Origin: a virus | Virus genome (UHGV): UHGV-0135138 | Length of the DNA: 24,508 nt | Strand: one strand, 5' to 3' | In this document: positions 19 through 24,471 of the stretch, piece after piece | How positions within the stretch are numbered: position 1 is the stretch's first letter | How the letters are laid out: each line of letters starts with the position of its first letter | Translations under genes and position numbers: made by a program | The notes under the pieces: generated by a model | The model's database searches: none | What the model was told of the DNA's origin: nothing | The model's input: the letters and a program-made list of their open reading frames with translations, nothing else

Positions 19-651
19 ATGACTGTCGAAAAAGACGAGGTGAAAACTCGCCTGACACCAGCGGAGTGGGCCGAAGCTGAAGCCAAATGGACGTCAGGCG
101 AATATACACTCTCAAAGCTGGAGGAAGAGTACGGCATTCGTCGTGAAACACTCTCCAGACATTTCAAAAAGCGAGGATTAGAGAAAGGCGCGGACTCTGT
201 TGGGAAGATGGTTCGTGAGTCTCTTAAATCTGACGCAGAGCTTCGCGCTAAAGCCCGTGCGGAAAAGATAGAAGAACGTCGTACACGTTATGACGGCTGG
301 GCGTATGCGTTGGGGCAGATGGTGATGGTCGAAGTCACTACGGCCAAGCGTGAGGGTAAGCCTTTAGGGGCGATTGAGGATTCTCTCAAGAGCTTACAGA
401 GAGCAAGTAATACCCTTGCAAAATGCTTTGAAGTTTCGTCCAAAGCATTGGGTATGGATCATGCGGAAAATGACGAGGAAGAAATTCCGAACCTGGTATT
501 TGGTGAGCTTACGCCTTCCCAGGTGGCGAAATTACGTCAGGAAGACGACGAGCCTGAAATCATCGATGACGAATTGCTTGAGACGTTGGAAGAAGAAGCT
601 CTAAGCGAATTTGATGCGACAGATGATGGAAGTGAAGGGGAGGACGAATAA
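19..651 (+). CDS. terminase small subunit (putative)
   Basis: 210-aa ORF immediately upstream of the large terminase gene, stop overlapping its start (TAATG). N-terminal basic HTH-like segment (YGIRRETLSRHFKKRGLEKG) and very acidic C-terminal tail (DDEPEIIDDELLETLEEEALSEFDATDDGSEGEDE). AGAGGGA RBS upstream of the ATG. Confidence 0.6.
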   Translation: MTVEKDEVKTRLTPAEWAEAEAKWTSGEYTLSKLEEEYGIRRETLSRHFKKRGLEKGADSVGKMVRESLKSDAELRAKARAEKIEERRTRYDGWAYALGQMVMVEVTTAKREGKPLGAIEDSLKSLQRASNTLAKCFEVSSKALGMDHAENDEEEIPNLVFGELTPSQVAKLRQEDDEPEIIDDELLETLEEEALSEFDATDDGSEGEDE

Positions 652-1907
652 TGGCAATCCCGTCCTCGCTCAGTCTTGTGCAACTGCATTCTGGACAGAT
701 GAAAGTCTTCCAGTCTCCGCATCGATTTAAAGTTGTTTGTGCTGGTCGACGCTGGGGAAAATCCCGGTTGTCGATCTCCACTATTATTCGTGCGGCGGCA
801 AAGGAAAAAAAGCAAAGGGTCTGGTATGTCGCTCCTACTTACCAGATGGCTCGCCAGATTTTGTGGGACGATCTACAGGAAATTCTGCCCCGTAAGTGGG
901 TTAGGAAAAAGAACGACACCACGATGACAATCGTGTTGAAGAACGGTTCGGAGATCGCCCTCAAAGGTGCTGATAAGCCTGACACTCTGCGCGGCGTAGC
1001 GTTGCATTTTGTAGTGCTTGATGAATTTCAGGATATGAAGGCTGACACCTGGTACAAGGTGTTACGACCTACTCTTTCATCGACACGCGGCGGTGCACTG
1101 ATTATTGGTACGCCAAAAGGCTTCTCGGAATTTCACAAACTGTGGACTATAGGCCAGAACGTAGAGCTGCAAAGAAAGGGACAGTGGAAGAGCTGGCAGT
1201 TTGTAACTGCTGATTCTCCGTTTGTGCCTACGGCGGAAATTGAAGCTGCTAAGAACGATATGGACCCTAAATCGTTCGCTCAGGAGTACCTGGCCAGCTT
1301 TGAAAATATGTCCGGGCGCGTTTACTACCCGTTCGATCGAAACGTGCATGTTAAACCGCTTCAGTTCAACCCTCGGTTGCCTATATGGGTAGGACAGGAC
1401 TTTAACATTGACCCGATGTCTTCCGTAATTTTGCAACCTCAGCCAAATGGTGAGCTATGGGCAATTGATGAATTGGTGCTCTTTTCTTCTAACACGGCAG
1501 AAGTTTGTGATGAGCTTGAGAGGCGCTTCTGGCGCTGGAAATCACAGGTAACGGTATTTCCAGATCCGGCAGGTGCTTATCGCCAACATGCTCGCGGGGA
1601 GTCTGACGTAGACATATTCAAAGAGAAGGGATTCTTACGTGTCGATTATTCGAAAAAGCACCCGCCAATTGCGGATCGTGTTAATGCTGTTAACCGAATG
1701 CTGATGACCGCATCTGGAGATATCCGGCTGTATATCGATCCGAAGTGCAAGCATTTGATTGATTCACTGGAAAAGGTCATCTACAAGCCTGGAACACGAG
1801 ATATGGATAAGACAGGTGGCATTGAGCATAGTGCAGACGCATTGGGCTATCCAGTACATCGTAGGTATCCAGTCAAAAACCGTGTTATTCTTGGTGGTTC
1901 TCGATAG
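651..1907 (+). CDS. terminase large subunit
   Basis: 418-aa ORF with Walker A-like motif (VVCAGRRWGKSRLS) near the N-terminus, Walker B-like hydrophobic stretch ending in acidic residues (HFVVLDEFQDM), and a C-terminal half with conserved acidic residues consistent with the nuclease domain. Sits between the small terminase and portal candidates. Confidence 0.85.
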   Translation: MAIPSSLSLVQLHSGQMKVFQSPHRFKVVCAGRRWGKSRLSISTIIRAAAKEKKQRVWYVAPTYQMARQILWDDLQEILPRKWVRKKNDTTMTIVLKNGSEIALKGADKPDTLRGVALHFVVLDEFQDMKADTWYKVLRPTLSSTRGGALIIGTPKGFSEFHKLWTIGQNVELQRKGQWKSWQFVTADSPFVPTAEIEAAKNDMDPKSFAQEYLASFENMSGRVYYPFDRNVHVKPLQFNPRLPIWVGQDFNIDPMSSVILQPQPNGELWAIDELVLFSSNTAEVCDELERRFWRWKSQVTVFPDPAGAYRQHARGESDVDIFKEKGFLRVDYSKKHPPIADRVNAVNRMLMTASGDIRLYIDPKCKHLIDSLEKVIYKPGTRDMDKTGGIEHSADALGYPVHRRYPVKNRVILGGSR

Positions 1908-1922
1908 GTAAGTAATTATCTA
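1905..1922 (+). promoter_or_regulatory. gene-junction element TAGGTAAGTAATTATCTA (TAAGTAA family); includes the terminase stop codon
   Basis: 18-mer that is 17/18 identical to 5334-5351. TAG/TAA/TAA fall in all three frames. Lies 12 nt upstream of the portal start. Confidence 0.35.
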
Positions 1923-1933: not shown

Positions 1934-3508
1934 ATGGAATTGAACGACAAACAAATTAAGGATCTGGTGGCGCGACGCCACCCGGAATACGAAAAGAAAA
2001 AAGAACATTGGGACTTCCTCGCCAGCACTTACGCTGGCGGGCGTGGTTGGTTTACAGACAATATCTTTCGTTACTTTAAAGAGGGAGATCAGGAGTTTAA
2101 GGAGAGAGTTGAGCGTGCTTATCGCTTCAACCACACTCGTGAGGTGGTAAACCTCATCAACAAATATCTCTTTAAAGAAGACATTCATAGAAATATCGAA
2201 GAGGCACCAGAGCAGATCCGCAATTTCTGGAAACGTGCGACTCGCCAGAATGCCTCTATTGACTCATTTATGGCCGCTATTGATTTGCAGTCGTCTATTT
2301 ACGGTCGCATATGGGTTGTTGTCGATAGCACGATGAGTGGTGATGTTGAGTCAGTAGCTGACGAGAAAAAGAAAGATGCTCGCGCCTACGCCTACTGGAT
2401 TTCACCTCAGCAAATGCTGGATGTGGCATGGGACGACGACGGGAATATGTTGTGGGCGTTAATTGTGGAAGTCGCTCGTGATGACGCAGATCCTTTTACT
2501 TCTACAGGTCAGGAATACCAACGTTATCGTCTGTGGACACAAAATACGTGGTATCTGTTCCGTGAGGAAGTGAAGAAGGGCGCTGGTGGAGCAGGTCGTC
2601 GTCAGGCAAAAGTTATTTTAGAGGATAGCGGTGCGCATAATCTCGGCGTAGTTCCGGTGTTTCCTGTTGATTGTATTGGAGAAAGTGAATCACCGTATTT
2701 CAGCCCATCGTTGATCGATGATATCGCTTATCTTGATCGTGCGGTTGCAAACTATCTGTCAAACCTTGATGCCATTATTCAGGATCAGACATTTAGCCAG
2801 TTGGCTATACCGGTACAGTCGCTTTTACCTGGTGATGAAAACCACACTAAAGTGCTTGAAATGGGCACAAAGCGAGTCTTCACCTACGATTCTGAAGGTG
2901 GAAACCAGCCGTTTTATCTGTCACCAGACCCGAAACAAGCTCAGATGATCATCACTACGATTAAGACGGTGATTAACGAAATCTACCATTCAGTTGGTGT
3001 AGCTGGTGAGCGAACGAAGCAGGACAACGCACAGGGAATAGATAATTCATCTGGTGCCGCAAAAATGTATGACTTCCAGCGTGTAAATAGCTTACTCGTC
3101 ACAAAAGCAGAACGTCTGGAAAGGGCTGAGCGTCAAATCATGCAACTGGTTGCGAAATGGATGGGGGTAGATCTGGACGAAGATCACTCATTAATTGCGT
3201 ATCCAGAAAGTTTCGATATTCGTGGCCTTACTGATGAATTTTCTGTTGCCGAGAAACTGTCGTTACTTCAGGCACCGGACTCTGTACGTCGTCACCAGAT
3301 GGAAATGCTGATTGAGAAGATTTTCCCGAACATCACTGAGGCGATGAAGAAGGAATTTGATAAAGATCTCTTGAATTTTCCGCCAAAAAATGATCTAAAT
3401 ACCCTTGAAAATAAGTCAGCACTTACTTATGATCAAGGCGCAGCCCAAGAAAGCGGGCAAGATCAACCCCGAGGGAATGGGGACTCATCTACTCAAGAGA
3501 ACGAGTGA
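1934..3508 (+). CDS. portal protein (putative)
   Basis: 524-aa ORF immediately downstream of the large terminase, the canonical portal position. Size and acidic C-terminal tail fit portal proteins. No motif-level confirmation is possible without a search. Confidence 0.65.
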   Translation: MELNDKQIKDLVARRHPEYEKKKEHWDFLASTYAGGRGWFTDNIFRYFKEGDQEFKERVERAYRFNHTREVVNLINKYLFKEDIHRNIEEAPEQIRNFWKRATRQNASIDSFMAAIDLQSSIYGRIWVVVDSTMSGDVESVADEKKKDARAYAYWISPQQMLDVAWDDDGNMLWALIVEVARDDADPFTSTGQEYQRYRLWTQNTWYLFREEVKKGAGGAGRRQAKVILEDSGAHNLGVVPVFPVDCIGESESPYFSPSLIDDIAYLDRAVANYLSNLDAIIQDQTFSQLAIPVQSLLPGDENHTKVLEMGTKRVFTYDSEGGNQPFYLSPDPKQAQMIITTIKTVINEIYHSVGVAGERTKQDNAQGIDNSSGAAKMYDFQRVNSLLVTKAERLERAERQIMQLVAKWMGVDLDEDHSLIAYPESFDIRGLTDEFSVAEKLSLLQAPDSVRRHQMEMLIEKIFPNITEAMKKEFDKDLLNFPPKNDLNTLENKSALTYDQGAAQESGQDQPRGNGDSSTQENE

Positions 3509-3529: not shown

Positions 3530-4417
3530 ATGAAACTGTGGCAAATGCTTTTGGCCCGTCGTGGTCTGATGGATGTTGCTGAAGCGCATGAGCGTGGAGG
3601 CGCTGGCGGTGTAGCTGCTGATAATGAGCAGAGTACACAAGATCCTGACAAACAGGGTGAACAAAAAGAGCAGCCGAAGGGTGATGACGAATACGCTGGC
3701 ATGACTCATGAAGAGTTACTGGCCGAACTTCGTAAAACCAAGAAAGCTGGTGCTGAACTGCTGAAAGAGAACATGAAGCGCAAAGAGAAAGAGCGCACAT
3801 TGGCCGATCAGCTTGCTCAGTACGGTGATATCGACCCGACGCGTGCTCGCCAGCTTTTAGAAGCTGAACAGGCCGCAGAAAATGCACGTCGTGAGGCGGA
3901 GCAAGCTGAACTGGAGCGTCGTGGTGAGTTCGATGCTGTAAAAAAACAGATGGTCGAAGCACACCAGGCAGAGCTGGCACAGCGTGACGAACGTTATGTT
4001 GCTCTGGAAAGTGAAAACGCATCACTGAAATCTCAATTAGTCGAGATGACTGTGGGCGCTTCCTTCAGTAACTCTCTCTTCCTACGTGACAAAGTTCTGA
4101 TGACTCCGGCAAAAGCCCGCGTGATCTACGGCTCTCATTTTGAAGTGGGTGAAGACGGTAGCGTAGTGGGTTATGACAAACCGGCAGGTCATAAAGAACG
4201 AGCTGTTCTGGTTGACGGTGAAGGTAAGCCGTTGCCGTTTGAATCCGCGATTGAACGCATTGTGCGGGCAGATCCGGAAGCTGACGCATTGATGCGTAGC
4301 GAAGCCAAGCAGGGTGTAGGCTCACATTCCAAATCGACCTACACAATATCCCGACCGAAGAACAAGTCGACTATGGATAAGTTGGCCTCCGGTCTGGGGA
4401 AAATTGGACTTAAGTAA
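3530..4417 (+). CDS. scaffolding protein (putative)
   Basis: 295-aa ORF between portal and capsid genes. Central region is highly charged and helical/coiled-coil-like (ELLAELRKTKKAGAELLKENMKRKEKERTLADQLAQ...EAEQAAENARREAEQAELERRGE). AAGGGA RBS 7 nt upstream of the ATG. No protease motif recognised. Confidence 0.55.
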   Translation: MKLWQMLLARRGLMDVAEAHERGGAGGVAADNEQSTQDPDKQGEQKEQPKGDDEYAGMTHEELLAELRKTKKAGAELLKENMKRKEKERTLADQLAQYGDIDPTRARQLLEAEQAAENARREAEQAELERRGEFDAVKKQMVEAHQAELAQRDERYVALESENASLKSQLVEMTVGASFSNSLFLRDKVLMTPAKARVIYGSHFEVGEDGSVVGYDKPAGHKERAVLVDGEGKPLPFESAIERIVRADPEADALMRSEAKQGVGSHSKSTYTISRPKNKSTMDKLASGLGKIGLK

Positions 4418-4442: not shown

Positions 4443-5324
4443 ATGCCATTACTGCGTGAAGAAGCTGAAAAGCTGTCTAACAACGAACTCGAACAGGGTG
4501 TGATCGAAACTATCATCGATCGCGATGACCTGTTTGCCATCCTGCCGTTCATGAAGATTAACTCTAAGGCGTATCTGTACAATCGCGAGGCTACCCTGAG
4601 TGAAGCAGAGTTTATTGACGTGAACGATACCATCACGGAAGGCGCAGCAACCTTCACAGAACATGTAGCGAAGCTGCGTATTCTGGCTGGTGACGTAGAC
4701 GTTGATAAATTCCTGGCAACCACGATGGCCGACACTAACAACCAGTTGGCCATTCAGGTTCGTCAGAAAGTTAAAGGTCTGGCTCGTGCATTCCGCCGTA
4801 ATCTGATTTTGGGGGATTCCAGCACCAATGCTAAGGCTTTTGATGGTATTCCACGTCTGATGCATAACGACCAGAAGATCGATATCGCTAAAGCCTCTAT
4901 GACTTTCTCTATGTTTGATGAGTTGGTGGATGCAGTGAAAGATCTGGGCGCGGACTGCATTATGATGCGTTCAGAACATCTTCGTGCTTACCGTGCGCTG
5001 CTGCGTACCGTCAACATCGGACCGTCAGAAATTATGATAGAGAATTTTGGGCGTCCTATGCTGTGTCACAACGGAATTCCGTTTATTGTTAATGACTTTA
5101 TTCCGTTGACAACCGAAAAGGATGCAGCGGATATTTACTGTTTGCATTTATCGGAAGAGAACGGTTTGACTGGCCTGTATGGCGGCGACAATGCTGGTAT
5201 TGTCGTTGAAAACATTGGTACGGTTCAGAATAAAGATGCAACCCGTACTCGTGTAAAATGGTACTGCTCTCTAGCGAATAAGCACGATAAGGCTATCGCT
5301 GCACTGACTAATGTAAAAATTTAA
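4443..5324 (+). CDS. major capsid protein (putative)
   Basis: 293-aa ORF directly after the scaffold candidate, with the same CAAAGGGAATT RBS context (4427-4437 and 3516-3526), followed by a strong intrinsic terminator. Position and size fit a major capsid protein. Confidence 0.6.
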   Translation: MPLLREEAEKLSNNELEQGVIETIIDRDDLFAILPFMKINSKAYLYNREATLSEAEFIDVNDTITEGAATFTEHVAKLRILAGDVDVDKFLATTMADTNNQLAIQVRQKVKGLARAFRRNLILGDSSTNAKAFDGIPRLMHNDQKIDIAKASMTFSMFDELVDAVKDLGADCIMMRSEHLRAYRALLRTVNIGPSEIMIENFGRPMLCHNGIPFIVNDFIPLTTEKDAADIYCLHLSEENGLTGLYGGDNAGIVVENIGTVQNKDATRTRVKWYCSLANKHDKAIAALTNVKI

Positions 5325-5397: not shown

Positions 5398-6057
5398 ATG
5401 CCAGAACAAAAGATGATGATTACCGAAGAGGCCTTTTCGGATTTCACGGGGCATATGTGCCGTGTCGGATTTACCAATTCTATCTCCGATGAACCTTTAA
5501 CCGAGCGACAACAAAGTCAGCTATCAGCTTGTTTGCAGGCGACTTCCTTCACCCAATCCGTAAACATAACCCCTGCTTCAGCGTCAGTTTTGGTGGGGAA
5601 AAGCGTTCAACTAAGTGCAGGTATCAGTATGGGTAAGAGTGCCGGTTTATTCACCTGGAATTCAGCCAATGATCAAACTGCAACCGTTAACAGCAATGGG
5701 TTAGTAACTGGCGTAGCCCCTGGCAAAGTAAAAATTACTGCAACTGATCAGGAAACCCAGCTTTCCGCGTCAGCTGAAGTGACTGTAAATCCGGTAGCTG
5801 TTCAATCTGTAACTATAACGCCAGACTCAACCTCTGTTGAGAAAGGGAAATCAGTCAATCTGAAAGCGAATATCCAGCCGTCAAATGCGACGAATAAAGC
5901 AGTTACCTGGTCTTCCAAAAATGAAGATAAGGCAACGGTAAACCAGAGCGGTAACGTTACTGGTGTTGCTGCTGGTACTGCCACGATTGAGGTAACTACT
6001 CATGATGGTAGCCACAAAGCAACAGCGATCGTAGAGGTTACTGGCGCACAGGAATAA
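5398..6057 (+). CDS. Ig-like (Big_2-type) domain protein, candidate head decoration protein
   Basis: 219 aa. Two tandem ~80-aa segments with the bacterial Ig-like group 2 pattern (ITP.S.SV..GKSV.L.A...P.NATNK.VTWSS.N...ATVN.SG.VTGVA.G.A.I..T). Preceded by an AGGA RBS and located right after the capsid gene. Confidence 0.7.
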   Translation: MPEQKMMITEEAFSDFTGHMCRVGFTNSISDEPLTERQQSQLSACLQATSFTQSVNITPASASVLVGKSVQLSAGISMGKSAGLFTWNSANDQTATVNSNGLVTGVAPGKVKITATDQETQLSASAEVTVNPVAVQSVTITPDSTSVEKGKSVNLKANIQPSNATNKAVTWSSKNEDKATVNQSGNVTGVAAGTATIEVTTHDGSHKATAIVEVTGAQE

Positions 6058-6101: not shown

Positions 6102-6536
6102 ATGAAACCTGCAAAAATTGTTCTATTAGAACCACAATTTTCCAGTTATTCGGGAATGCTGTGCGGTGTTCAGTTCGAGAATGGTGTGTCCATCGCAGAG
6201 TTGCCTTTTGTCGATCAGCAGAGAATTTGTGCCTCAATGCGAGCTTCAACAGTAGAGGGCAAAAATGTTTCTCCATCTGCCGCATACAGTGATCGTGGTG
6301 AATTGACCGCAGACCTGATTACAGAGCCAGTAGCGCCTGACATTGTACCAATGAAACGTGGGATGCCAGATGGACCGACCAAACAGATCCAGACTTTCAC
6401 ACGAGAAGAGCTGGAGTCAATTGCAGACAATGAAGGCATTGCCGGTCTACGTGTAATTGGGAATCAGATGGGTGTTAAAGCGAAAGGAATTGTCGAGATG
6501 ATTGAAGGTATCCTGAAAGCACAAGGCGGTGAGTAA
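6102..6536 (+). CDS. hypothetical head-associated protein sharing its N-terminal module with the upstream Ig-like protein
   Basis: 144 aa. N-terminal ~45 aa (EPQFSSYSGMLCGVQFENGVSIAELPFVDQQRICASMRA) aligns with the N-terminus of the 5398-6057 product (EEAFSDFTGHMCRVGFTNSISDEPLTERQQSQLSACLQA); the C-terminal part is unrelated. Stop overlaps the next start (TAATG). Confidence 0.6.
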   Translation: MKPAKIVLLEPQFSSYSGMLCGVQFENGVSIAELPFVDQQRICASMRASTVEGKNVSPSAAYSDRGELTADLITEPVAPDIVPMKRGMPDGPTKQIQTFTREELESIADNEGIAGLRVIGNQMGVKAKGIVEMIEGILKAQGGE

Positions 6537-7369
6537 TGGCGCAGATCGACTCGTATCGTAGCGGTGAAGCTGTTTCCCTTTCATTTGCCTTCAACGTGCT
6601 GGATATCGAATCTGCTACCTACACAGTAAAGGACAGCACCGGGGGTATTCTCGTTGATGGCGAACTGCTAGAAATTGCCAGCGGGCAAATGTCGATTCCG
6701 GTTGTTGTTCCGGCTGAATACAACCAGCTTTCTGAGAAAGAACGAGATCTGCGGTACGTCATTGTGAAAGCTGTTGCATCGGGTCTGACGCATGAAGAGC
6801 GGCAAATGTATGTTCTGCTGAATAGTTTTGAATTGTCGATACCGGAACAGTCGTTTGCAACTGTCGCTGATGCTCAAATGCAGGCGATCGATATGCTGAA
6901 TGGGGACACTTTGCTGTCGGATGGTGAAGGCTTAATGCGCAAGCGTCTCATTGAGGCTACCAGACGAATTAAAACTTTACCGTTCTCAATCCGCAAAATT
7001 CTACGTATCGACTTTGACCGATACGATCGCCCTCAAAATATGCTGAATGTGTATGACATTCCGTGGGGGGCAGATGGAGCGTACCGGCATGATTTAGTCG
7101 ATTGGGAAAAGATGACGCAGGAGAAGTTTGAAGAGTTCCCTGACTATTTCAAAGAAGCGTTGATGCTTGCCGTTGTCAACGAAGCGTGTGAGATCGCAAA
7201 TGGCAATGATGTAGCCGCAGCACGAGAGGATGGCATTTTGTCAGAGTCCATCGGTGAAACAACCAACATGTACCGTACCGGTAAAGCTGCAAACGTGCAT
7301 GTGGCTCGCAGTACCTGGCGCTTGCTGGTCAGTTACATCAACAACCGTATGATTGTTCGCCGTGCGTAA
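6536..7369 (+). CDS. hypothetical structural protein (neck / head completion region)
   Basis: 277-aa ORF, translationally coupled to neighbours, in the block between head and tail genes. No recognisable motif. Confidence 0.5.
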   Translation: MAQIDSYRSGEAVSLSFAFNVLDIESATYTVKDSTGGILVDGELLEIASGQMSIPVVVPAEYNQLSEKERDLRYVIVKAVASGLTHEERQMYVLLNSFELSIPEQSFATVADAQMQAIDMLNGDTLLSDGEGLMRKRLIEATRRIKTLPFSIRKILRIDFDRYDRPQNMLNVYDIPWGADGAYRHDLVDWEKMTQEKFEEFPDYFKEALMLAVVNEACEIANGNDVAAAREDGILSESIGETTNMYRTGKAANVHVARSTWRLLVSYINNRMIVRRA

Positions 7370-7448
7370 CGCCAGTCGCATTATTTACTTTTGGTCGAAA
7401 GGGTTTTTGGCCAGTAATGAGAGCGACCGACAACAACAGGGAGAGTGC

Positions 7449-7793
7449 ATGAATATTTCATGGCAAACAGAAATTGCGATCTACCGCTTTGGCGTAAAGA
7501 ACGTTTACGGCGAGGCGCAATTGCAATTCGTCAGGAAGACGAATGTCGGCGTGGTTAAGTTCGAACAGAGTAATGAGAAATCGTCAGTTCGTGCTGATAG
7601 CTCTGGTAGTCGTGGTAAGGCGAGTCTGGAGCTGTTTGATGCTGTGTTAATTGTCCCTTTGGAAGCGGCTGTACAACTTGATGATGTGCTGATCCTTGAA
7701 GGTCAAAAATTAAAGGTGTCCAGTGTTCATCGCCGCTGGGGGCTACGAGGAAGACCAGGGCATCTTGAAGTGGGGGCGAATATATGGGTCTGA
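7449..7793 (+). CDS. hypothetical head-tail joining protein
   Basis: ORF is open from a TTG at 7353, but the ATG at 7449 has a GGGAGAG RBS 3-5 nt upstream and does not overlap the previous gene, giving a ~114-aa product. Position fits a head-tail adaptor or head closure protein. Confidence 0.5.
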   Translation: MNISWQTEIAIYRFGVKNVYGEAQLQFVRKTNVGVVKFEQSNEKSSVRADSSGSRGKASLELFDAVLIVPLEAAVQLDDVLILEGQKLKVSSVHRRWGLRGRPGHLEVGANIWV

Positions 7794-8257: not shown

Positions 8258-8258
8258 T

Positions 8259-15174: not shown

Positions 15175-15227
15175 ATTATTATGGCGCTGACAGGATGTTA
15201 GCGCCTACTTATTTCAAGGATGAAACA

Positions 15228-17297: not shown

Positions 17298-17314
17298 TCA
17301 AGGATTTTTTGGAC

Positions 17315-20300
17315 ATGGAACAGTTCAAGCAAAAAAAATTACCGCTTCTTATTGGCGGCGCTGGTGGTAAAAAAAGTAGCAAAAGCTCCAGCCGTACTCC
17401 GGTTGAAGCTGACGATACCGTGAATTCTCGTGCAATGGCCGCTATCCTCGATCTTCTTGGGGAAGGGGTAATTGGCGGCTTAGTAAATGGCGCAAGATCT
17501 ATTTTTGTCGACGATTTACCGATTGTAAATGAAGACGGCTCCTCCAATTTTAGCGGAATTACTTGGGATTTTCGCGACGGTTCACAAGACCAGACTCCAA
17601 TGTCCGGCTTTGATTTCGTTGAAACACCCAAATCCGTCAATATTCAATTAAAAAAAACACATTATGTAACGGTTTCAATCGATAACGATGAAGCTGATCG
17701 TGTTCGTGTCATCATGAAGTTTCCTTCTTTGCGAAGCGTAGATAAAAAAACTGGTGACACGAACGGCACGACTGTTGAGTACAAGTTCCAGATAGCGAAT
17801 GGCGACTCAACATTTGTAGATGTGGTTGCAGAAGGTGAAAAAAGCGTTGGCATTAAGCTAACTGCAAAGAAGACAGGTGTTTATTACCGTAGTTATGAAC
17901 TGAAGTTACCTAAGCCTGGGCGCGCGTATAAGGTGCGTGTTGTCCGTATTACCGATGACAACAACAGTCAGTATCTCTATAACGACACATGGGTAGACTC
18001 AATAGGTGAGATTGTTGATACACCGATGAACTACCCAAACTCTGTGCTGGTGGGGTTGAAGGTTAATTCTGAGCAGTTTGGCAACTCTATGCCATCTCGT
18101 TCGTATTTGGTGCGAGGATTAAAAATTCGTGTGCCGTCAAACTACAACGAATCCAGCAACACTTATGTGGGCGTATGGGATGGCACTTTTAAGCTGCTGT
18201 CTTCTTCGAACCCTGCGTGGATTCTCTTTGATTTGCTTACCAATGCTCGATATGGTCTTGGGCAATTCGTGTCGGAATCCATGATTGACCTTGGCCAACT
18301 GTACCAGATTGGTCGATATTGTGACGAAGAGGTCGATGATGGCTTTGGGGGTAAAGAGAAACGCTTTGCAATCAATACGCAGATCACCAGTCGACAGGAC
18401 GCATACCGATTAATTCAGGATATTGCCGGTGCATTCCGCGGCATGGTGTTTTGGGCTGGTGGCATGGTTAACATCATGCAGGATAGCCCATCAGATCCGG
18501 TAATGATGTTTACTAACTCCAACGTCAAAGATGGATTGTTTTCCTATAAAGGTTCTGCACGTAAAGATCGTCCATCAGTTGCGCTCGTGACTTATAACAA
18601 CAAGGAGGACGGTTATAAGCAAAATATCGAGTACGTCGAAGATCAGGAAGCAATGCGCCGTTATGGTGAGCGCAAAACAGAAGTCGTAGCATTTGGCTGT
18701 ACAAGTCGAGGACAGGCTCACCGAGTTGGTTTGTGGCTTTTGTATACCGCCAGAATGGAGTCGGATGTAATTACATTTACTGCCGGTTTAGACGCCTCAT
18801 TTCTGATGCCTGGTGAAACCGTTCTGATTCAGAATAAATATCGCGCGGACAAACGTAACTCCGGTCGAATTATGGAGTTTACCAAAAACAGCATCACTCT
18901 CGATGCGCCTGTGTCGTTAACTAAAAGCGGCAGCTTTATTCGGATACTGAATCAGGAAGGCAAAATCGTTGAACGCGATGTTCTTGAAACTGGCGAAAAC
19001 ATAACAAAGGTTACGTTTTCAAAAGCCCTGACGTCAGCGGAAACGCCTGTTTTGAGCGGTGTCTGGACAATTACAGAACCAGATCTCGAACCTATGCGCG
19101 TTCGCATCGTTAACATCGCGCAGGGGGAAACGCCGGGTAGCTTTGACATCACCGCTGTTGAGAACAATCCGACTAAATATGAGGCGATCGACAATGGTGC
19201 AACGCTTATCCCGCAGAATACGACGGTATTGGACCCGACTTACTCGAAGCCGTCTAATTTGCAAATCACTGAAGGGACTTATCTCTCAAGTCCGGGCAAC
19301 CTGTCAGTAAAATTGACTGCAACATGGGAAGGAAAATCTCCAGAATATTGGATCAGCTGGCGACGTTCAGATGAAAGCAATGTATCGAACTGGCAATCGG
19401 CGCGTGTAACCGAAGAGCAATACGAAATCGTTAATGTTGCGGAGAATGGACGCTACGACTTCCAGCTGTATGCGGTTTCATTCAACGGTAAAAAAACAGA
19501 GATCATCAGCACCGTTTATCAGGTGCAGGGCACAATGACTCCACCTGATTCGCCAACGTCATTAACGGCAGTTGGGGACTATCGAAATGTGATACTGAAT
19601 TGGATTAATCCAGATTCGGTGGACCTTGATCATATTAATGTTTACGCATCCAAGGTTAACAATCTGGATACAGCGAAACTGATCGCAGAGTCTGCAAGCA
19701 CCACCTTTACACATGCTGGTCTTGGGGATAACGAAACGTGGTATTACTGGGTGCGAGCATCGAACAAGCGCGGCATGTTAAGCCCTCCGAACTCAAACTT
19801 GGGTACAGAGGCGACAACTCGCGATGTATTGTCGTTCCTGACTGGCAAAATTACATCTTCCGAGCTTGGTCAGGCCTTGACTGAGGAAATTAGCTCAAAA
19901 GCCTCTCAGGAGGCGGTGAACTCCATCTATGAACAGATTGATGAAAGCCTGAAGAACCTTGATGGCAAGTTTTCAGAGACAGATCGGCGGCTTGAAGAAG
20001 CTCAAAACGATCTTAAAACGGAGGTTTCCAGCACCGTCAGCAAGGTAGAAGACGCTCTTAAAGAGGTTGAAGACTCTAACGCTGCTTTAATTCAGCTACA
20101 GGAGACTGTCTCCGAGCAGGGCAAGGCTGTGGCTGGTGCAGTCGAAGCGGCCCATGCTGCGTTCGAAAATGCTTCTGCATTGATTGCCGAAGAACGTGAG
20201 GCTCGAGTAGAAGGAGATATGGCTAACGCTAAACAGATTGAGACAATGAAATCTTCTGTTGACGATAGTGTTGCGGCAGTTGAAGAGATGAAGAAAACTG

Positions 20301-21475
20301 TGGCCGAAGTCGGGCGAGTCAGTGCTGAAACGACCACTAATATTGAAGCGTTGGCAAAAACTAATATTGATCTCGCATTACGCCAGGATGAAGAACAACA
20401 CAAGCAGTTAATGAATAACGCTAAGATAGCTACCACTCAGAAGACATTTGCTGATGATTTGTCAGCGATGGCGTCGAAAGTGGAAGAGATCCGTGCTGAA
20501 ATTGGTGAAGATATTCGCGCCTCTATCACGGAGGAAACGACAGCTCGGGTTGAGGCTGATAAGGCTATTGCAACCCAAATTGACAAGCTTGAAGCTCAGA
20601 TTAACGACGATATTGCTGCGGCGATTGTGCTTGAACAAGAGGCTCGCGTCACAGCCGACGAATCATTGTCAAAACAAATTACTACATTACAAGCCAAGGT
20701 TGAAGGCGACATCAGTGCGGCGTTGACCGAAGAGCAAATTGCCAGAGCGAGCGCTGATGAATCGTTGGCGCAACAAATCACAACACTAAAGACCCAAACA
20801 GGTGTTGATATCAAGGCGGCTGTTGCGGAAGAAACGAAAGCCAGAACTGATGTTGACTCTGCGCTGGCTGGGCAGATCACTAATTTGCAGGCTCAGACAG
20901 AAAAAGATATCAGCGCCGCAATTACGTCTGAATCTACCGCACGCGCAGAAGCTGATAAAGCACTAAGTGGTCGTATTGATACGATAAGGACTGAAGTAGA
21001 AGGCAACTCAGCAACTATCCAGCAGCAATCCCAAGCCATTGCCGACACCAACAAAAAAATCTCAACGGCGTGGACGTTGAAAATGGAGACTTCAACGAGT
21101 GGGGGGCAGAAGTATATTGCCGGTATTGCGCTTGGTATCGACACAACTGGTCTTTCTCAGTTTTTGGTGCAAGCGGACAGGTTTGGTTTGGTCAACTCTG
21201 TGAACGGGAAGATCACCACACCATTTGTTATCGAAAACAGCGTCGCCTATATGAATGGTGCGTATATCAAGGATGGCACAATCACCAATGCAAAAGTTGG
21301 TGATCTGCAATCTACCGATTTTGTCTCCGGTAGATCTGGATGGCGATTCGGTAAAAATGGAACGCTTGAGATCAACGGTAATAGCGGCGGCAATGGGCGA
21401 TTGGTCATAAATGGTCAGCGGATTGATGTTTATGACGATAACAACGTCCTACGAGTAAGAATTGGCCTTCTGTGA
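17315..21475 (+). CDS. J: central tail fibre / tip attachment protein, lambda J homologue
   Basis: ORF is open from TTG 17309; the ATG at 17315 is preceded by AAGGA. Long colinear similarity to lambda J as recalled (NSVLVGLKVNSEQFG, VPSNYN, IWDGTFK, GQYCD, DGFGG, AFGCTSRGQAHRVGLWL, GKIT.S.LG, KYIAGI.LG, LSQFLV). Followed by three in-frame stops (TGATAGTAG). Confidence 0.9.
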   Translation: MEQFKQKKLPLLIGGAGGKKSSKSSSRTPVEADDTVNSRAMAAILDLLGEGVIGGLVNGARSIFVDDLPIVNEDGSSNFSGITWDFRDGSQDQTPMSGFDFVETPKSVNIQLKKTHYVTVSIDNDEADRVRVIMKFPSLRSVDKKTGDTNGTTVEYKFQIANGDSTFVDVVAEGEKSVGIKLTAKKTGVYYRSYELKLPKPGRAYKVRVVRITDDNNSQYLYNDTWVDSIGEIVDTPMNYPNSVLVGLKVNSEQFGNSMPSRSYLVRGLKIRVPSNYNESSNTYVGVWDGTFKLLSSSNPAWILFDLLTNARYGLGQFVSESMIDLGQLYQIGRYCDEEVDDGFGGKEKRFAINTQITSRQDAYRLIQDIAGAFRGMVFWAGGMVNIMQDSPSDPVMMFTNSNVKDGLFSYKGSARKDRPSVALVTYNNKEDGYKQNIEYVEDQEAMRRYGERKTEVVAFGCTSRGQAHRVGLWLLYTARMESDVITFTAGLDASFLMPGETVLIQNKYRADKRNSGRIMEFTKNSITLDAPVSLTKSGSFIRILNQEGKIVERDVLETGENITKVTFSKALTSAETPVLSGVWTITEPDLEPMRVRIVNIAQGETPGSFDITAVENNPTKYEAIDNGATLIPQNTTVLDPTYSKPSNLQITEGTYLSSPGNLSVKLTATWEGKSPEYWISWRRSDESNVSNWQSARVTEEQYEIVNVAENGRYDFQLYAVSFNGKKTEIISTVYQVQGTMTPPDSPTSLTAVGDYRNVILNWINPDSVDLDHINVYASKVNNLDTAKLIAESASTTFTHAGLGDNETWYYWVRASNKRGMLSPPNSNLGTEATTRDVLSFLTGKITSSELGQALTEEISSKASQEAVNSIYEQIDESLKNLDGKFSETDRRLEEAQNDLKTEVSSTVSKVEDALKEVEDSNAALIQLQETVSEQGKAVAGAVEAAHAAFENASALIAEEREARVEGDMANAKQIETMKSSVDDSVAAVEEMKKTVAEVGRVSAETTTNIEALAKTNIDLALRQDEEQHKQLMNNAKIATTQKTFADDLSAMASKVEEIRAEIGEDIRASITEETTARVEADKAIATQIDKLEAQINDDIAAAIVLEQEARVTADESLSKQITTLQAKVEGDISAALTEEQIARASADESLAQQITTLKTQTGVDIKAAVAEETKARTDVDSALAGQITNLQAQTEKDISAAITSESTARAEADKALSGRIDTIRTEVEGNSATIQQQSQAIADTNKKISTAWTLKMETSTSGGQKYIAGIALGIDTTGLSQFLVQADRFGLVNSVNGKITTPFVIENSVAYMNGAYIKDGTITNAKVGDLQSTDFVSGRSGWRFGKNGTLEINGNSGGNGRLVINGQRIDVYDDNNVLRVRIGLL
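20508..21002 (+). repeat. five tandem 99-bp (33-aa) coding repeats inside J
   Basis: Protein repeats EDIRASITEETTARVEADKAIATQIDKLEAQIN / DDIAAAIVLEQEARVTADESLSKQITTLQAKVE / GDISAALTEEQIARASADESLAQQITTLKTQTG / VDIKAAVAEETKARTDVDSALAGQITNLQAQTE / KDISAAITSESTARAEADKALSGRIDTIRTEVE. More degenerate copies extend upstream to about 20170. Confidence 0.75.
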
Positions 21476-21568: not shown

Positions 21569-24103
21569 ATGTGGTACAGGGAAGGTACTATCACATTTAC
21601 ACAGGGTAGCAATACTCTGGTTGGGGCAGGGACAGCCTGGAACGTAACCGCTAATGGTGTGTTGCCGGGTATGATCGTCGTTGGCCCCGATAATAAACTG
21701 TATGAGATCAAGCGCGTAACCAGTGACACGAATATTGTTCTCTCAGAACCTTATACCGGTGAAACTCAGTCTGAAGTTCCGTGCCGAATCATTACGACCT
21801 ATGAGGGCGACTTAACGCAGTTTAGCGCACGCTTTACTGCACTAATGTCGCGTATGTCGGCTGATTCCAAGTCCATGCGTAGTTGGCTGACTGCCGTGGA
21901 TGAAATCACAATTGAACGTGAAGATGGTACGGAATTAACCATAAAATCCCTTACTCAGATCGTTAATGAGCACAACAAAAACGTAGAGTGGTATAAAAAT
22001 AACACTGATGAAATTGATTCCGCTGGCACCTATGCGCGTGAGGCCGCGAGTAGCGCGACAACTGCTGCGCAAAACGCTGAGCGCGTTGAACAGATCGCGC
22101 AAAATATTGCTAACAGTATAAGTACGGCCCAGCAGGCTGCCACAGATGCTGCAAATAGTGCCGGTGCCGCGAAAACGTCAGAAACGAATGCGGCAGCGTC
22201 ACAACAATCAGCAGCCACTTCTGCATCCACCGCGACCACGAAAGCGTCAGAAGCAGCCTCCTTAGCCAGGGATGCGTCGGCTTCAAAAGAGGCGGCAAAA
22301 TCATCAGAAGCGAACGCGAAAGCGTCGGAAACCAGTGCCGAATCCTCAAAAACGGCAGCCGCATCGTCAGCCAGTTCGGCAGCGTCATCGGCATCGTCTG
22401 CGTCGGCTTCAAAAGATGAAGCGACTAAACAGGCGTCAGCCGCAAAAGATAGTGCTATGACTGCATCCTCGAAAGCAACAGAGGCGACAGGCAGTGCAAC
22501 GGCTGCCTCTCAGAGCAAAACTGCTGCTGAATCCGCTGCGACCCGTGCGGAAGCTGCTGCTGCTCGTGCTGAAGAGATTGCCGGTGCAGTTGCGATGGAA
22601 GACGCAAGCCTTACAACTAAAGGTGTTGTGAAACTTAGCAGTGCGACCAACAGCACTTCAGAGTCACTGGCTGCAACCCCAAAAGCGGTAAAAGCTGCAT
22701 ATGACCTGGCTGACGGGAAATACACTGCGCAGGATGCAACGACAACCCAGAAAGGGATAATCCAGCTAAGTAGCGCCATCAATGACGAATCTGAAACGCT
22801 TGCTGCAACGCCAAAAGCGGTAAAAGTCGCCTATGACAATGCCGAAAACCGCCTGCAGAAAGATCAGAATGGCGCTGATATCCCTGACAAGAACGCATTC
22901 AGGGAAAGTCTTGGGCTGGGGGATGCCGCCACCAAAAATATCGGTACTACAGCCGGCACCGTAGCGGCAGGAAACGACTCCAGACTGGTTAACGCACTGC
23001 AAAAATCCACTTCAGCCCTGGCCGTGGACCTGAATACACTGGGGAGTCTGGAAGTCCAGGGAACTTATTATCAGCCAGCGGATAAAGGGGCAACAGCTGC
23101 GCATCATTACCCGGTGCTCCGGTCCGGGACATTGCAGGTTCTGCCTGGTGTCTGGGGAGGCTGCCAACAGGAATATACGAGCTGGAATCCACCGAGAAAA
23201 TTTGTGAGAACACTGACAGGCTATTTCAAAGGTAATGGCCCGTGGTCGCCGTGGGTGGAGGTGGCGTTTACCGACAGTACAGTGGCTGTTGCGACCGCAG
23301 CGACAAAATTGCAGACGACCAGAAGAGTTGGTGGTGTGGATTTTGACGGGACATCAGATATCAGCCTCCCCGGAGTGGATGCGCCAGGCGATCAGGATAC
23401 GACAGGTAATGCGGCTACTGCGACCAAATTGCAGACGCCAGTGAATATTAACGGTACAGCGTTTGATGGTAGCCACGATATCACGATCCGGGATGAAGGT
23501 GCATTTCAGAAGCCTGCGCTCTTTATACATTCCTCTGTAGATTTGAACACGCTAGGTGGTCCAGGTAGCGAAGGTTTTTATTTTCAGAAATACGGGAGTG
23601 TGGCGACAGTTGATCATCATTACCCAACCAACAGACCAGGCACGCTGACTGTACTGCGTGGTGGATTTGACGGATGCCAGCAGGAATATTTTAGTGTTAA
23701 TCCTCCAAGGAAATTTTTCAGGGCATTAACAGGAGCCTGGAACGGACAGGATGGCCCATGGTCAGACTGGTTTGAGATTCAGACTCTGGGAGGTGGAAGT
23801 GGAGGTACGCAGGTTTTTGGAACCGAATATCAAAATAAATCATCAGAACGCGGTCCGGGTGTTACATACACTAATAGTCGATCGTATCCGATTATGGTGA
23901 TCATTGATGGATACTACGGAGGTGGTGACGGTTTTCATCTTTTTATAAACGATGAAATATTGATATCCCCATCTACATCTTCAGGACAAAATGACGACCA
24001 ATTTCAGTTTACTTTCATCGTTCCGGCAGGCGCAACGTACATGATCTTTGAAAAAACTTTCGGTACGAATTTCCGTATTCACACCTGGTTGGAGTTTTGT
24101 TAA
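21569..24103 (+). CDS. stf: side tail fibre protein (Stf-like), mosaic
   Basis: 844 aa with GGAG RBS. Long Ala/Ser/Thr-rich shaft (AAKTSETNAAASQQSAATSASTATTKASEAA...) that I recall as nearly identical to lambda Stf. Conserved tail-fibre motifs TKGVVKLSSATNSTSESLAATPKAVKAAYDLADGKYTAQDATTTQKGIIQLSSAINDESETLAATPKAVKVAYDNAEN. Distinct N-terminus and a C-terminal region with internal duplications. Confidence 0.9.
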   Translation: MWYREGTITFTQGSNTLVGAGTAWNVTANGVLPGMIVVGPDNKLYEIKRVTSDTNIVLSEPYTGETQSEVPCRIITTYEGDLTQFSARFTALMSRMSADSKSMRSWLTAVDEITIEREDGTELTIKSLTQIVNEHNKNVEWYKNNTDEIDSAGTYAREAASSATTAAQNAERVEQIAQNIANSISTAQQAATDAANSAGAAKTSETNAAASQQSAATSASTATTKASEAASLARDASASKEAAKSSEANAKASETSAESSKTAAASSASSAASSASSASASKDEATKQASAAKDSAMTASSKATEATGSATAASQSKTAAESAATRAEAAAARAEEIAGAVAMEDASLTTKGVVKLSSATNSTSESLAATPKAVKAAYDLADGKYTAQDATTTQKGIIQLSSAINDESETLAATPKAVKVAYDNAENRLQKDQNGADIPDKNAFRESLGLGDAATKNIGTTAGTVAAGNDSRLVNALQKSTSALAVDLNTLGSLEVQGTYYQPADKGATAAHHYPVLRSGTLQVLPGVWGGCQQEYTSWNPPRKFVRTLTGYFKGNGPWSPWVEVAFTDSTVAVATAATKLQTTRRVGGVDFDGTSDISLPGVDAPGDQDTTGNAATATKLQTPVNINGTAFDGSHDITIRDEGAFQKPALFIHSSVDLNTLGGPGSEGFYFQKYGSVATVDHHYPTNRPGTLTVLRGGFDGCQQEYFSVNPPRKFFRALTGAWNGQDGPWSDWFEIQTLGGGSGGTQVFGTEYQNKSSERGPGVTYTNSRSYPIMVIIDGYYGGGDGFHLFINDEILISPSTSSGQNDDQFQFTFIVPAGATYMIFEKTFGTNFRIHTWLEFC

Positions 24104-24105
24104 GA

Positions 24106-24471
24106 ATGAAATATTTTGTCGATGCGAAAGGTACTATTTATGCCTACGAGTCTGACGGTTCGCAGGATGAGTTCATTAAAGAGGGACTGACGCCAGTAAC
24201 GGAAGCGGAGGTGAAAGAACGCCTGAAACCATCAGCAGAATGCTGGCAACGACGAGCGGAGAGCAAGAGAGAGTCGTTGATATCTGAAGCTGGTCGCAAT
24301 TTGTCCGTCAATCAGGTTCGATTGCTTTCGGGGCGTGTGTTATCAGAACGTGAGAGTCAGTCGCTGAATGCCTGGCTGGATTACGTAGACGCACTGGAGG
24401 CGATGACGTTTGCTGCTGTTGTTGATGAGGAAAGCTATCTCAGCATCAAGTGGCCGGAAAAACCCGCGTGA
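24106..24471 (+). CDS. tfa: tail fibre assembly protein (Tfa-like chaperone)
   Basis: ORF is open from TTG 24097; the ATG at 24106 (MKYFVDAKG...) is more plausible, with GGAG 11 nt upstream. Immediately follows the fibre gene. C-terminus LNAWLDYVDALEAMTFAAVVDEESYLSIKWPEKPA resembles the lambda Tfa C-terminus (EAWKKYRVLLNRVD...APDIEWPAVP, recalled). Confidence 0.8.
   Translation: MKYFVDAKGTIYAYESDGSQDEFIKEGLTPVTEAEVKERLKPSAECWQRRAESKRESLISEAGRNLSVNQVRLLSGRVLSERESQSLNAWLDYVDALEAMTFAAVVDEESYLSIKWPEKPA

Follow-up and report, generated by a model that had tools for sequence, protein, structure and literature searches.

The window, the whole 24,508-nt stretch of DNA analyzed here, is an ordinary head-and-tail block of the well-known SSU5 family, and the contrast between its head and tail genes is old, textbook mosaicism and no new hybrid. 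It contains 22 virion genes (nt. 19–24471), all on the + strand, which run from a small terminase-like gene (TerS) to a tail fiber assembly chaperone (tfa). We consider it highly probable (roughly 85%) that they form the complete late gene block of a phage-plasmid that belongs to the SSU5 supergroup and comes from Escherichia or one of its close relatives, in the ancestral layout, with the exchange of modules predating the supergroup. The SSU5-type structural module and its mosaicism are already known.

Placement of the window in the SSU5 supergroup

At the nucleotide level, the window is 92–95% identical over 80–90% of its length to E. coli elements (Cyrano/pLF82, CMS-2020a, and many plasmids) and ~80% identical over 83% of its length to the Salmonella phage SSU5, and it matches 832 plasmid records from Escherichia, Klebsiella, Enterobacter, Yersinia, and Salmonella. 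Roughly 250 of the E. coli, Salmonella, and Klebsiella elements are near-full-length. The gene annotation of the relatives is collinear with the window, and the structural module is collinear at the nucleotide level with SSU5, pHCM2, and Cyrano. The 20 genes from TerS to J, the persistent structural set, lie in the same order in Cyrano, SSU5, two E. coli plasmids, and Klebsiella pJN2-26, and the order is common to the supergroup (SSU5, pLF82/Cyrano, pECOH89, pHCM2, and the Klebsiella pKpn group), which has all 20 of them. Amino acid identities across this set are 75–100% to Cyrano and the E. coli plasmids, 69–96% to SSU5, and 60–95% to pJN2-26. In the relatives, ParB genes are located just upstream of TerS, a flank that lies outside the window. 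Cyrano and SSU5 are siphovirus phage-plasmids whose structural genes belong to the persistent genome (PMC9928086, PMC7969092), and the 1524-a.a. tape measure protein (TMP) of the window fits the tail length of ~259 nm that has been reported for Cyrano (PMC9928086).

Unlike the other supergroup members, the window has its own allele of the major capsid protein (MCP; ≤83% nucleotide identity to any PLSDB plasmid), a decoration-type protein that is one Ig repeat shorter, and a divergent Ig domain in the major tail protein (MTP), and its distal side tail fiber (stf) and tfa cassette has no close counterpart in the collections of phages, plasmids, and E. coli genomes. All genes except distal stf and tfa have their best matches in the SSU5 supergroup. 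The original prediction, which assigned head and tail to different evolutionary affinities, had named best hits in one lineage with uniform identity as the pattern that would contradict it; this contradicting pattern was largely recovered, in that a single lineage prevails, but identity is not uniform, varying in a number of small patches and not along a head/tail divide.

Head and tip identities drop together from the E. coli relatives (98–100% and 93–98%, respectively) to SSU5 (89–96% and 82–94%) and the Klebsiella pKpn type (83–95% and 74–87% in pJN2-26), indicating that the junction is not a recent hybrid joint and that the combination is ancestral to the SSU5 family. Compared with the E. 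coli relatives, the tip block (~93% nucleotide identity) has diverged slightly further than the head block (~98%). Recent mosaic patches were noted in the MCP, the Ig domains, the middle of the TMP, the C-terminus of J, and stf/tfa.

Packaging, head, and tail tube genes

The small terminase-like DNA-binding protein (210 a.a., nt. 19–651; PHROG 867 "DNA binding domain", E 2e-100) is 100% identical to the Cyrano product annotated as terminase small subunit and 27–32% identical to the gene product encoded upstream of the large terminase (TerL) in the phages nickie, RHph_Y2_11, and BUCTxx99, with no match to lambda Nu1. TerL (418 a.a., nt. 651–1907), of the T4-type ATPase family (Pfam Terminase_6N, Terminase_3, and Terminase_6C), is 96% identical to that of SSU5; it matches T1-like and T5-like terminases at 24–27% only and does not match lambda A (GpA_ATPase/GpA_nuclease). 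The portal protein (524 a.a., nt. 1934–3508; PHROG 145, E 3e-141) matches only 42 phage records, namely SSU5-like phages followed by ~110 kb Rhizobium, Pseudomonas, Xanthomonas, and Stenotrophomonas phages (46–51%), and has neither a Pfam match nor a PDB relative. The head scaffolding protein follows (295 a.a., nt. 3530–4417; PHROG 206, E 1e-51; Pfam DUF6651).

The MCP (293 a.a., nt. 4443–5324; PHROG 212 major head protein, E 1e-104) gave weak Pfam matches to SrpI-like, SU10_MCP, and GP7 families, consistent with an HK97-type fold; among solved structures, the encapsulin SrpI alone matched it, and weakly. The 3′ two-thirds of its gene form a locally divergent allele, where nt. 4500–5250 are 75–86% identical to the relatives between flanks of 96–100%, and at most 83% identical to any of 72,556 plasmids. 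Downstream lies an Ig-like head decoration-type protein (219 a.a., nt. 5398–6057) with two stretches of Big_2 (Pfam, E 2e-45), whose homologues measure 301–307 a.a. in Cyrano and SSU5 and 142 a.a. in pJN2-26; its Big_2 domain is 42% identical to the C-terminus of lambda V. The sizes of TerL, portal, and MCP and the two Big_2 stretches are as originally described, as are the 22 + strand genes. Five head-completion, neck, and tail-terminator genes (nt. 6102–6536, 6536–7369, 7362–7793, 7784–8257, and 8259–8642) fall in PHROGs 916, 912, 911, and 927 (Neck1/tail completion), the last gene also matching Pfam Phage_tail_terminator_6; the Cyrano annotation uses Ad1, Hc1, Ne1, and Tc1 for this region, and none of the five has a match in lambda, HK97, N15, or T1.

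The MTP, or tube protein (248 a.a., nt. 8717–9463), was recognized by homology of its N-domain (a.a. 1–160, 42–48% to nickie, RHph_Y2_11, and BUCTxx99) and carries a C-terminal Big_2 Ig domain, which was the only Pfam match (Phage_TTP_12 was absent); the Ig-domain DNA (nt. 9250–9500) is just 59–67% identical to the relatives. A G/T-like tail assembly chaperone pair (nt. 9518–10185), assigned from the lambda G/T position and PHROGs 893 and 1131, consists of a first ORF (nt. 9518–9835) whose end is overlapped by an open −1 frame (nt. 9799–10185). The overlap holds an A5 run (GAAAAAG, nt. 9806–9812) and no canonical X XXY YYZ slippery heptamer; by its arrangement, the pair would be made via a −1 frameshift.

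The TMP (1524 a.a., nt. 10193–14767; Pfam TMP_3 and Tape_meas_lam_C) is 32–37% (a.a. 235–760) and 43–46% (a.a. 1395–1523) identical to the TMPs of nickie and BUCTxx99, has no significant BLAST match to lambda H, and has only the Pfam Tape_meas_lam_C motif in common with it. Two alleles of the central TMP segment (nt. 11250–13000) exist in the E. coli lineage. A module boundary between the MTP and TMP, as first proposed, was misplaced and can be ruled out, as homology of the TMP to its counterparts in the head-related phages covers most of its length and continues through a.a. 1523, its extreme C-terminus, whereas lambda H is not homologous to it by BLAST.

That the head genes and MTP are unlike those of lambda was borne out: across the 15 genes spanning TerS through the TMP, tblastn (E<1e-3) gave no match to lambda, HK97, N15, or T1 except in the Big_2 Ig domain, a mobile domain similar to the C-terminus of lambda V and N15 gp13. 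A T1-like or N15-like head affinity, also considered, gave no matches. The proteins of lambda itself strongly match Phage_Nu1, GpA_ATPase/GpA_nuclease, Phage_portal_2, Peptidase_S49, Phage_cap_E, Phage_TTP_12, and TMP_2, and no window protein falls into these head, tube, and TMP families in Pfam; the families common to both are Phage_min_tail, Phage_tail_L, and NLPC_P60 with Prok-JAB. Nucleotide similarity to lambda (blastn) is confined to one stf segment and 50-base scraps. The window has neither the head genes of Lambdavirus and lambdoid phages (Nu1, GpA terminase, Phage_portal_2, S49 protease, Phage_cap_E, and gpD) nor their high tail identity (nucleotide-level or >60% a.a.), the tail values being 29–41% a.a.

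Tail tip, side fiber, and chaperone

The lambda-type tail tip genes M (nt. 14810–15145), L (nt. 15195–15926), K (nt. 15919–16716), and I (nt. 16704–17297) precede a J-like tip attachment/central fiber protein (1386 a.a., nt. 17315–21475; Pfam FNIII-A_GpJ, Phage-tail_3, and Phage_Tail_Tip). They lie in lambda order and carry the corresponding Pfam families (Phage_min_tail, Phage_tail_L, Prok-JAB with NLPC_P60, and the J domains; E 1e-33 to 5e-96), except that I has no Pfam match yet is 29% identical to lambda I (E 2e-17). All five match lambda (E 4e-12 to 4e-109), with identities of 32% in M, 41% in L, 29% in K, 29% in I, and 31% over 61% of the length in J. This falls short of the close tracking of lambda that was claimed for the tip genes, as the scores against HK97, N15, and T1 are about equal and those against the Ralstonia phage Dina are higher (L 49%, J 36%), which places lambda mid-pack among the reference tips. 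The bit scores of L are 218 with Dina, 190 with BUCTxx99, 155 with lambda, and 124 with RHph_Y2_11, with no match in nickie. The PDB matches of J are led by an F2-pyocin fiber (3e-154), followed by a 1172-a.a. fiber (4e-132) and lambda J (3e-123).

Outside the SSU5 family, the closest tips are those of Dina, the Burkholderia Bcep176, and the Pseudomonas F2 pyocin (L 46–51%; J 36%, E 2e-155). Dina is a 39-kb integrating temperate phage with an HK97-type head (protease and 412-a.a. MCP) that has no similarity to the window head. On these matches, the M–J cassette belongs to a very widespread lambda-type tail tip family and has no special affinity to lambda. Head and tip genes do differ in their sets of relatives, as originally stated: from the head through the TMP, only SSU5-like elements and a clade of ~110 kb siphoviruses match, whereas M–J are widespread.

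Lambda shares with the window the gene order M-L-K-I-J-stf-tfa, as well as the Tape_meas_lam_C, Phage_fiber_2, and Caudo_TAP families, and the window tip is presumably a conical structure like that of lambda, judging from family membership and the matched solved structures of the lambda tip. Lambda differs in its head, neck, tube, and TMP N-terminal families, in the presence of lom, which is absent from the window, and in a shorter J (1132 a.a.), whose C-terminal receptor-binding end is unmatched in the window J, which ends in Phage_Tail_Tip. The DNA encoding the J C-terminus (nt. 19750–21000) is nearer to SSU5 (82–89%) than to the E. coli relatives (65–79%).

The side tail fiber (844 a.a., nt. 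21569–24103; Phage_fiber_2, E 4e-34), where the G+C content climbs to 0.50–0.54, is mosaic. Its first 153 a.a. are 80% identical to the SSU5 Stf, and nt. 22157–22317 reach 90–96% identity with stf genes from many lambdoid phages. The lambda-like character attributed to stf stands for a.a. 202–384, where the Phage_fiber_2 repeats are located (64% a.a. and 69% nucleotide identity), and not for the rest; the distal 460 a.a. have only 30–42% matches, to P2-like, Goslar, and T1-like fibers, and beyond nt. 22705 there is no near match in 5426 E. coli genomes. The chaperone gene tfa (121 a.a., nt. 24106–24471; Pfam Caudo_TAP, E 5e-10) completes the arrangement seen in lambda Stf/Tfa, in which a Caudo_TAP chaperone comes after a fiber with Phage_fiber_2 collar repeats. 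Its product is, contrary to expectation, unrelated to lambda Tfa at the BLAST level (blastp, no match at E<1); it is closest to the Edwardsiella phages PEi21 and MSW-3 (40–42%) and 40% identical to the C-terminus of the HK97 Tfa. Searching phages, plasmids, and E. coli genomes for the source of distal stf/tfa returned nothing beyond 30–42% a.a. identity, or 70–75% nucleotide identity over short pieces.

Origin of the head and tip combination

Beyond the supergroup, the structural gene order is shared with Nickievirus (Pseudomonas phage nickie), the Rhizobium RHEph10/RHph_Y2_11, and the Stenotrophomonas BUCTxx99/ANB28; in nickie, RHph_Y2_11, and BUCTxx99, as in the window, it reads TerS-TerL-portal-scaffold-MCP...MTP-G-T-TMP-M-L-K-I-J. 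Identities in this comparison are 55–58% in TerL, 42–51% in the portal, and 47–59% in the MCP. Between the window and the ~110 kb siphoviruses, they are 56–57% in TerL, 47–50% in the portal, 47–53% in the MCP, and 32–46% in the TMP, its C-terminus included; the fibers differ. In the tip, M, L, and K of nickie are undetectable, RHph_Y2_11 reaches 24–35%, and BUCTxx99 29–44%. As the order is conserved through the end of the TMP in these relatives, any deep switch in affinity would lie between the TMP and M (~14.77–14.81 kb), if anywhere, and not between the MTP and TMP.

The BUCTxx99 tip is 48–54% identical to that of Dina, whose terminase, portal, and capsid show no similarity. Such discordance within the wider clade demonstrates an old exchange of the tip cassette. 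In a neighbor-joining (NJ) tree of concatenated tips, BUCTxx99 grouped with Dina (87%) and the window with SSU5 and RHph_Y2_11 (83%), a crude result from nine taxa, Kimura-corrected distances, and long branches, in which the grouping with RHph_Y2_11 may reflect long-branch attraction and the distances are near saturation (30–39% identity in gap-free columns).

We propose that the window combines a lineage-specific packaging, head, neck, tube, and TMP set with a lambda-type M-L-K-I-J, side fiber, and chaperone, and that this two-part layout, found also in the Pseudomonas, Rhizobium, and Stenotrophomonas ~110 kb siphoviruses, would be ancestral and stably inherited across the SSU5 supergroup. 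The lambda-like look of the tip would follow from a widespread tip family paired with many unrelated heads (lambda, HK97, N15, T1, Dina, and F-pyocins). The window tip would branch deeply within this family, roughly equidistant from its members, and would not have been acquired from lambda. Module exchange in the wider clade would have taken place at the TMP–M junction and be older than the supergroup, with recent recombination affecting only the distal fiber cassette and short stretches of proteins that are exposed at the surface or contact the host; the conserved collar segment of stf, common to lambdoid phages, is a probable crossover site. Against this reading, Dina and even lambda are closer to the tip than the head-related RHph_Y2_11 and nickie are, as the bit scores of L show, and vertical descent of the window tip within the head clade is accordingly not proven.

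A broader proposal, which we put somewhat below even odds, is that M–J may be an exchangeable unit passing at a fixed TMP/M junction between the ~110 kb SSU5/Nickie/RHEph10 heads and small HK97-headed temperate phages of Betaproteobacteria, as BUCTxx99 and Dina exemplify, that the SSU5 ancestor may have taken part, and that distal stf/tfa and the MCP allele may come from an unsampled relative. Possible, but rather unlikely, is a swap specific to the SSU5 ancestor, which would have taken M–J at the TMP–M junction from a Dina/Bcep176-like Betaproteobacteria temperate phage or a related lineage. L outside the SSU5 family is indeed best matched by Ralstonia Dina-like phages (~50%) and Bcep176 (46%) and not by the head-related phages, the top scores of J, K, and M are also with Dina, and BUCTxx99, which shares the Dina tip type despite an unrelated head, shows that swaps do occur in the clade. 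However, Dina leads BUCTxx99 only narrowly (L 49 vs. 44%, J 36 vs. 29%, and I 34 vs. 33%), the NJ tree places the window with RHph_Y2_11 of the head clade rather than Dina, and all tip distances approach saturation.

Constant co-inheritance of head and tip, with a tip that evolves faster but belongs to a family easier to detect, is improbable; synteny is perfect in all four head-clade lineages and tip proteins outpace head divergence even inside the SSU5 supergroup, but BUCTxx99 and RHph_Y2_11 are only 26–37% identical in the tip with heads at 43–55%, an inversion relative to the unrelated-headed Dina that a rate difference alone is insufficient to explain. The recent hybrid first envisaged, with a lambda-derived tip, stf, and tfa joined to a non-lambdoid head and tube at the MTP/TMP boundary, has very little left in its favor, as lambda homology from M onward only and the lambdoid-like stf patch (nt. 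22157–22317) are outweighed by M–J identities of 29–41% without nucleotide similarity, equally near or nearer tips in HK97, N15, T1, Dina, and the F2 pyocin, a TMP that sides with the head clade to its C-terminus, a tfa that is not lambda-like, and a head and tip pairing that is conserved and co-diverges throughout the supergroup, the identity levels and co-divergence by themselves ruling out a recent lambda-derived tail block.

The correct label for the window is the structural module of an SSU5-like phage-plasmid and not a lambda hybrid, a distinction of little importance beyond annotation, and its head/tip discordance is a clean case of modular phage evolution (Hendrix-type mosaicism) that adds no new principle. 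In Enterobacterales, SSU5-like elements have clinical relevance as carriers of resistance genes. SSU5 itself reportedly uses the LPS core. Host range is likely determined by the variable patches in the J C-terminus, stf/tfa, and the Ig domains, and an origin of distal stf/tfa and the MCP allele in an unsampled relative, if true, would imply an uncharacterized host range.

Gene content and identity of the element

The window carries 22 genes, and the ORF survey placed every long ORF on the + strand in a single unbroken late operon. Using Pfam and PHROGs, we assigned, all in the forward direction, a small-terminase-like DNA-binding protein (19–651), a T4-type large terminase (651–1907, 418 a.a), a portal (1934–3508), a scaffold (3530–4417), a major capsid protein (MCP; 4443–5324, 293 a.a), an immunoglobulin (Ig) protein with two Big_2 domains (5398–6057), five head-completion, neck, and terminator genes (6102–8642), a tail tube protein (MTP; 8717–9463) whose C-terminal domain is Big_2, a G/T-like chaperone pair (9518–10185), a tape measure protein (TMP; 10193–14767, 1524 a.a), the tip genes M, L, K, I, and J (14810–21475), a side fiber (stf; 21569–24103, 844 a.a), and its Caudo_TAP chaperone (tfa; 24106–24471, 121 a.a). 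ORFs, Pfam, and PHROGs bear out the genes and sizes listed in the original prediction. In the −1 frame, the T-like ORF is open from 9799 and shares 9799–9835 with the G-like ORF, which ends there. This overlap holds no canonical X XXY YYZ heptamer; an A5 run within it (GAAAAAG, read GAA AAA G, 9806–9812) is a place where tRNA-Lys might slip by −1, yielding a G-T fusion.

The full window, queried by megablast against 50,697 phage records, matched the Escherichia phages Cyrano and CMS-2020a (94% nt across 80% of the window) and the Salmonella phage SSU5 (80% nt across 83%). In PLSDB, 832 plasmids matched, 250 of them over at least 80% of the window; their hosts were Escherichia, Klebsiella, Enterobacter, Yersinia, Salmonella, and Citrobacter, and almost all were non-mobilizable. 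Annotated relatives are collinear with the window gene for gene. Cyrano, the pLF82 phage-plasmid carried by E. coli LF82, is a siphovirus whose tail measures ~259 nm and whose TMP has 1525 a.a (PMC9928086). The largest phage-plasmid supergroup is that of SSU5 and its relatives, with structural genes within the persistent genome (PMC7969092). Given these nucleotide matches, the collinearity, and this literature, we identify the window as the structural module of a phage-plasmid from the SSU5 supergroup. Both the element and the phenomenon at issue are already known.

Comparison with lambda, HK97, N15, and T1

Each window protein was compared by tblastn to the structural regions of phages lambda, HK97, N15, and T1. 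The 15 genes from the small terminase to the TMP gave no match to these four at E<1e-3, except for a Big_2 Ig domain, which aligns with the Ig domains at the C-termini of lambda V (42%) and N15 gp13. M, L, K, I, and J, in contrast, each matched all four phages. This contrast between head and tip is genuine and far above chance (E-values to 1e-109). At the DNA level, similarity to these references was confined to one stf segment and scraps of 44–50 bases. Pfam families draw the same line: lambda has Phage_Nu1, GpA_ATPase/GpA_nuclease, Phage_portal_2, Peptidase_S49, Phage_cap_E, Phage_TTP_12, and TMP_2, all absent from the window, which instead carries Terminase_6N, DUF6651, TMP_3, and weak SrpI-like/SU10_MCP matches in place of the lambda families for the head, tube, and TMP N-terminus. 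Lambda and the window do share Big_2, Tape_meas_lam_C, Phage_min_tail, Phage_tail_L, and Prok-JAB plus NLPC_P60.

The tip genes, stf, and tfa had been expected to follow lambda closely, which they do not. Amino acid identity to lambda is 32% for M, 41% for L, 29% for K, 29% for I, and 31% for J (61% coverage), alongside 28–38% to HK97, N15, and T1. Among solved structures, J ranks an F2-pyocin fiber (3e-154) and a 1172-a.a fiber (4e-132) ahead of lambda J (3e-123), and tfa gave no blastp match to lambda Tfa at E<1. The prediction holds in part: head and tail do differ in affinity. The difference is neither lambda-specific nor recent, and its boundary was misplaced.

In lambda-type tails, a conical tip made of the M-L-K-I-J products sits on the C-terminus of the TMP, with J bearing the central fiber, and Stf/Tfa are side fibers whose distal part sets receptor specificity. 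By analogy, the window M-L-K-I-J products would form such a tip, with J as the central fiber and Stf/Tfa as side fibers determining receptor specificity distally. These roles are borrowed from lambda-type tails, whereas gene content, family membership, and identity patterns are direct observations.

Local divergence within the SSU5 supergroup

Head and tip genes share 98–100% and 93–98% a.a identity, respectively, with E. coli relatives, 89–96% and 82–94% with SSU5, and 83–95% and 74–87% with the Klebsiella phage pJN2-26. Since the two drop in parallel, the head/tip junction is not a hybrid joint inside the supergroup. The original prediction had set itself against best hits in one lineage with uniform identity; one lineage does supply the best hits for all genes but distal stf and tfa, although identity is uneven. 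Mapped in 250-nt steps, this unevenness forms patches (the MCP 3′ part, Ig-domain protein, MTP Ig domain, mid-TMP, J C-terminus, and stf/tfa), all in parts exposed at the surface or in contact with the host, a pattern expected of local allele replacement.

The 3′ two-thirds of the MCP gene (4500–5250) share 75–86% nt with relatives, against 96–100% in flanking genes, and at most 83% with any of the 72,556 PLSDB plasmids; protein identity is 92% to members from E. coli, from Salmonella, and from Klebsiella alike. The segment looks like an allele from an unsampled SSU5-like lineage. Searched by sequence against solved structures, the MCP (4443–5324) has only two relatives: SrpI, the shell protein of a type 2A encapsulin (E 3e-4), and 8t6r, a 'Major membrane protein I' of similar size (E 3e-3). 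No solved phage capsid could be detected, and the portal has no PDB relatives by sequence. The Big_2 head protein (5398–6057; 219 a.a, two Big_2 stretches) varies in length among relatives, with homologues of 301–307 a.a in the Cyrano and SSU5 loci (L001 5523–6428; L002 5537–6460) and 142 a.a in pJN2-26 (L013 5597–6025), which suggests that whole Ig repeats are gained or lost. Identity falls to 59–67% nt in the MTP Ig domain (9250–9500). The central TMP segment (11250–13000) exists in two allelic forms inside the E. coli lineage, being 96–99% identical to plasmids p204A1-109K and CP090273 and 66–70% or unalignable against Cyrano and SSU5.

E. coli relatives are otherwise nearer to the window than SSU5, but the C-terminal part of J (19750–21000) is the reverse (82–89% nt to SSU5; 65–79%, partly unalignable, to E. 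coli relatives), suggesting that its receptor-proximal end was exchanged. At the J position, pJN2-26 has one annotated 4,045-a.a 'tail fiber protein' (L013 17299–29436), ~3x the J of the window. In p204A1-109K (CP100028.1; L011 19679–20653), an ISApl1 (IS30-family) transposase sits between tail genes L and K, an insertion that presumably knocks out virion production.

The stf gene is a mosaic. Residues 1–153 are 80% identical to SSU5 Stf and residues 202–384 are 64% identical to lambda Stf, while the distal 460 a.a find best matches of just 30–42% a.a, to P2-like gpH, Goslar, and T1-like fibers. A 161-nt collar segment (22157–22317) shares 90–96% identity with stf of many lambdoid phages by megablast of phage records. 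The closest relatives of tfa are Edwardsiella phage chaperones (40–42%), and searches of the phage collection, PLSDB, and 5,426 complete E. coli genomes turned up nothing close to distal stf with tfa (22706–24471). G+C is raised to 0.50–0.54 over 21.5–23.5 kb. Fiber segments have long been known to move horizontally among unrelated phages, and the shared collar and G+C rise are compatible with such exchange.

Deeper relatives and the position of the boundary

The portal and MCP also have relatives beyond the SSU5 family (46–53% a.a), in a small group of ~106–122 kb siphoviruses: Pseudomonas phages nickie and phiK7B1, Rhizobium phages RHEph10 and RHph_Y2_11, Xanthomonas phage JGB6, and Stenotrophomonas phages ANB28 and BUCTxx99. 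As annotated, nickie, RHph_Y2_11, and BUCTxx99 keep the gene order of the window, including TMP-M-L-K-I-J. All-against-all comparison placed the heads of four lineages at roughly equal distances (large terminase 55–58%, portal 42–51%, MCP 47–59%). The boundary had been predicted between the MTP and TMP; the TMP, however, sides with those of nickie and BUCTxx99 (a.a 235–760, 32–37%; a.a 1395–1523, 43–46%) and does not match lambda H significantly. Because this homology reaches the C-terminal end, a change of relatives, if there is one, would fall at the TMP/M junction (14767/14810).

Tip genes are discordant across this wider head clade. In the all-against-all comparison, nickie M, L, and K were undetectable and the RHph_Y2_11 tip showed 24–35% identity to the window; the BUCTxx99 tip showed 29–44%, yet 48–54% to Dina, an integrating Ralstonia phage of 39 kb whose HK97-type head has no similarity to any head gene of the window. 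Beyond the SSU5 family, L best matches Dina-like Ralstonia phages (~50%) and Bcep176 (46%). A bootstrapped neighbor-joining tree of M+L+K+I+J (1,503 gap-free columns) supported (BUCTxx99, Dina) at 87% and (window, SSU5, RHph_Y2_11) at 83%; as inter-group identities are 28–49% and the three longest branches fall together, long-branch attraction is possible. At some depth, phages with unrelated heads have exchanged tip cassettes, clearly so for BUCTxx99 and Dina. The SSU5 ancestor may have swapped its own tip as well; with or without that step, the event is older than the SSU5 supergroup and not specific to lambda.
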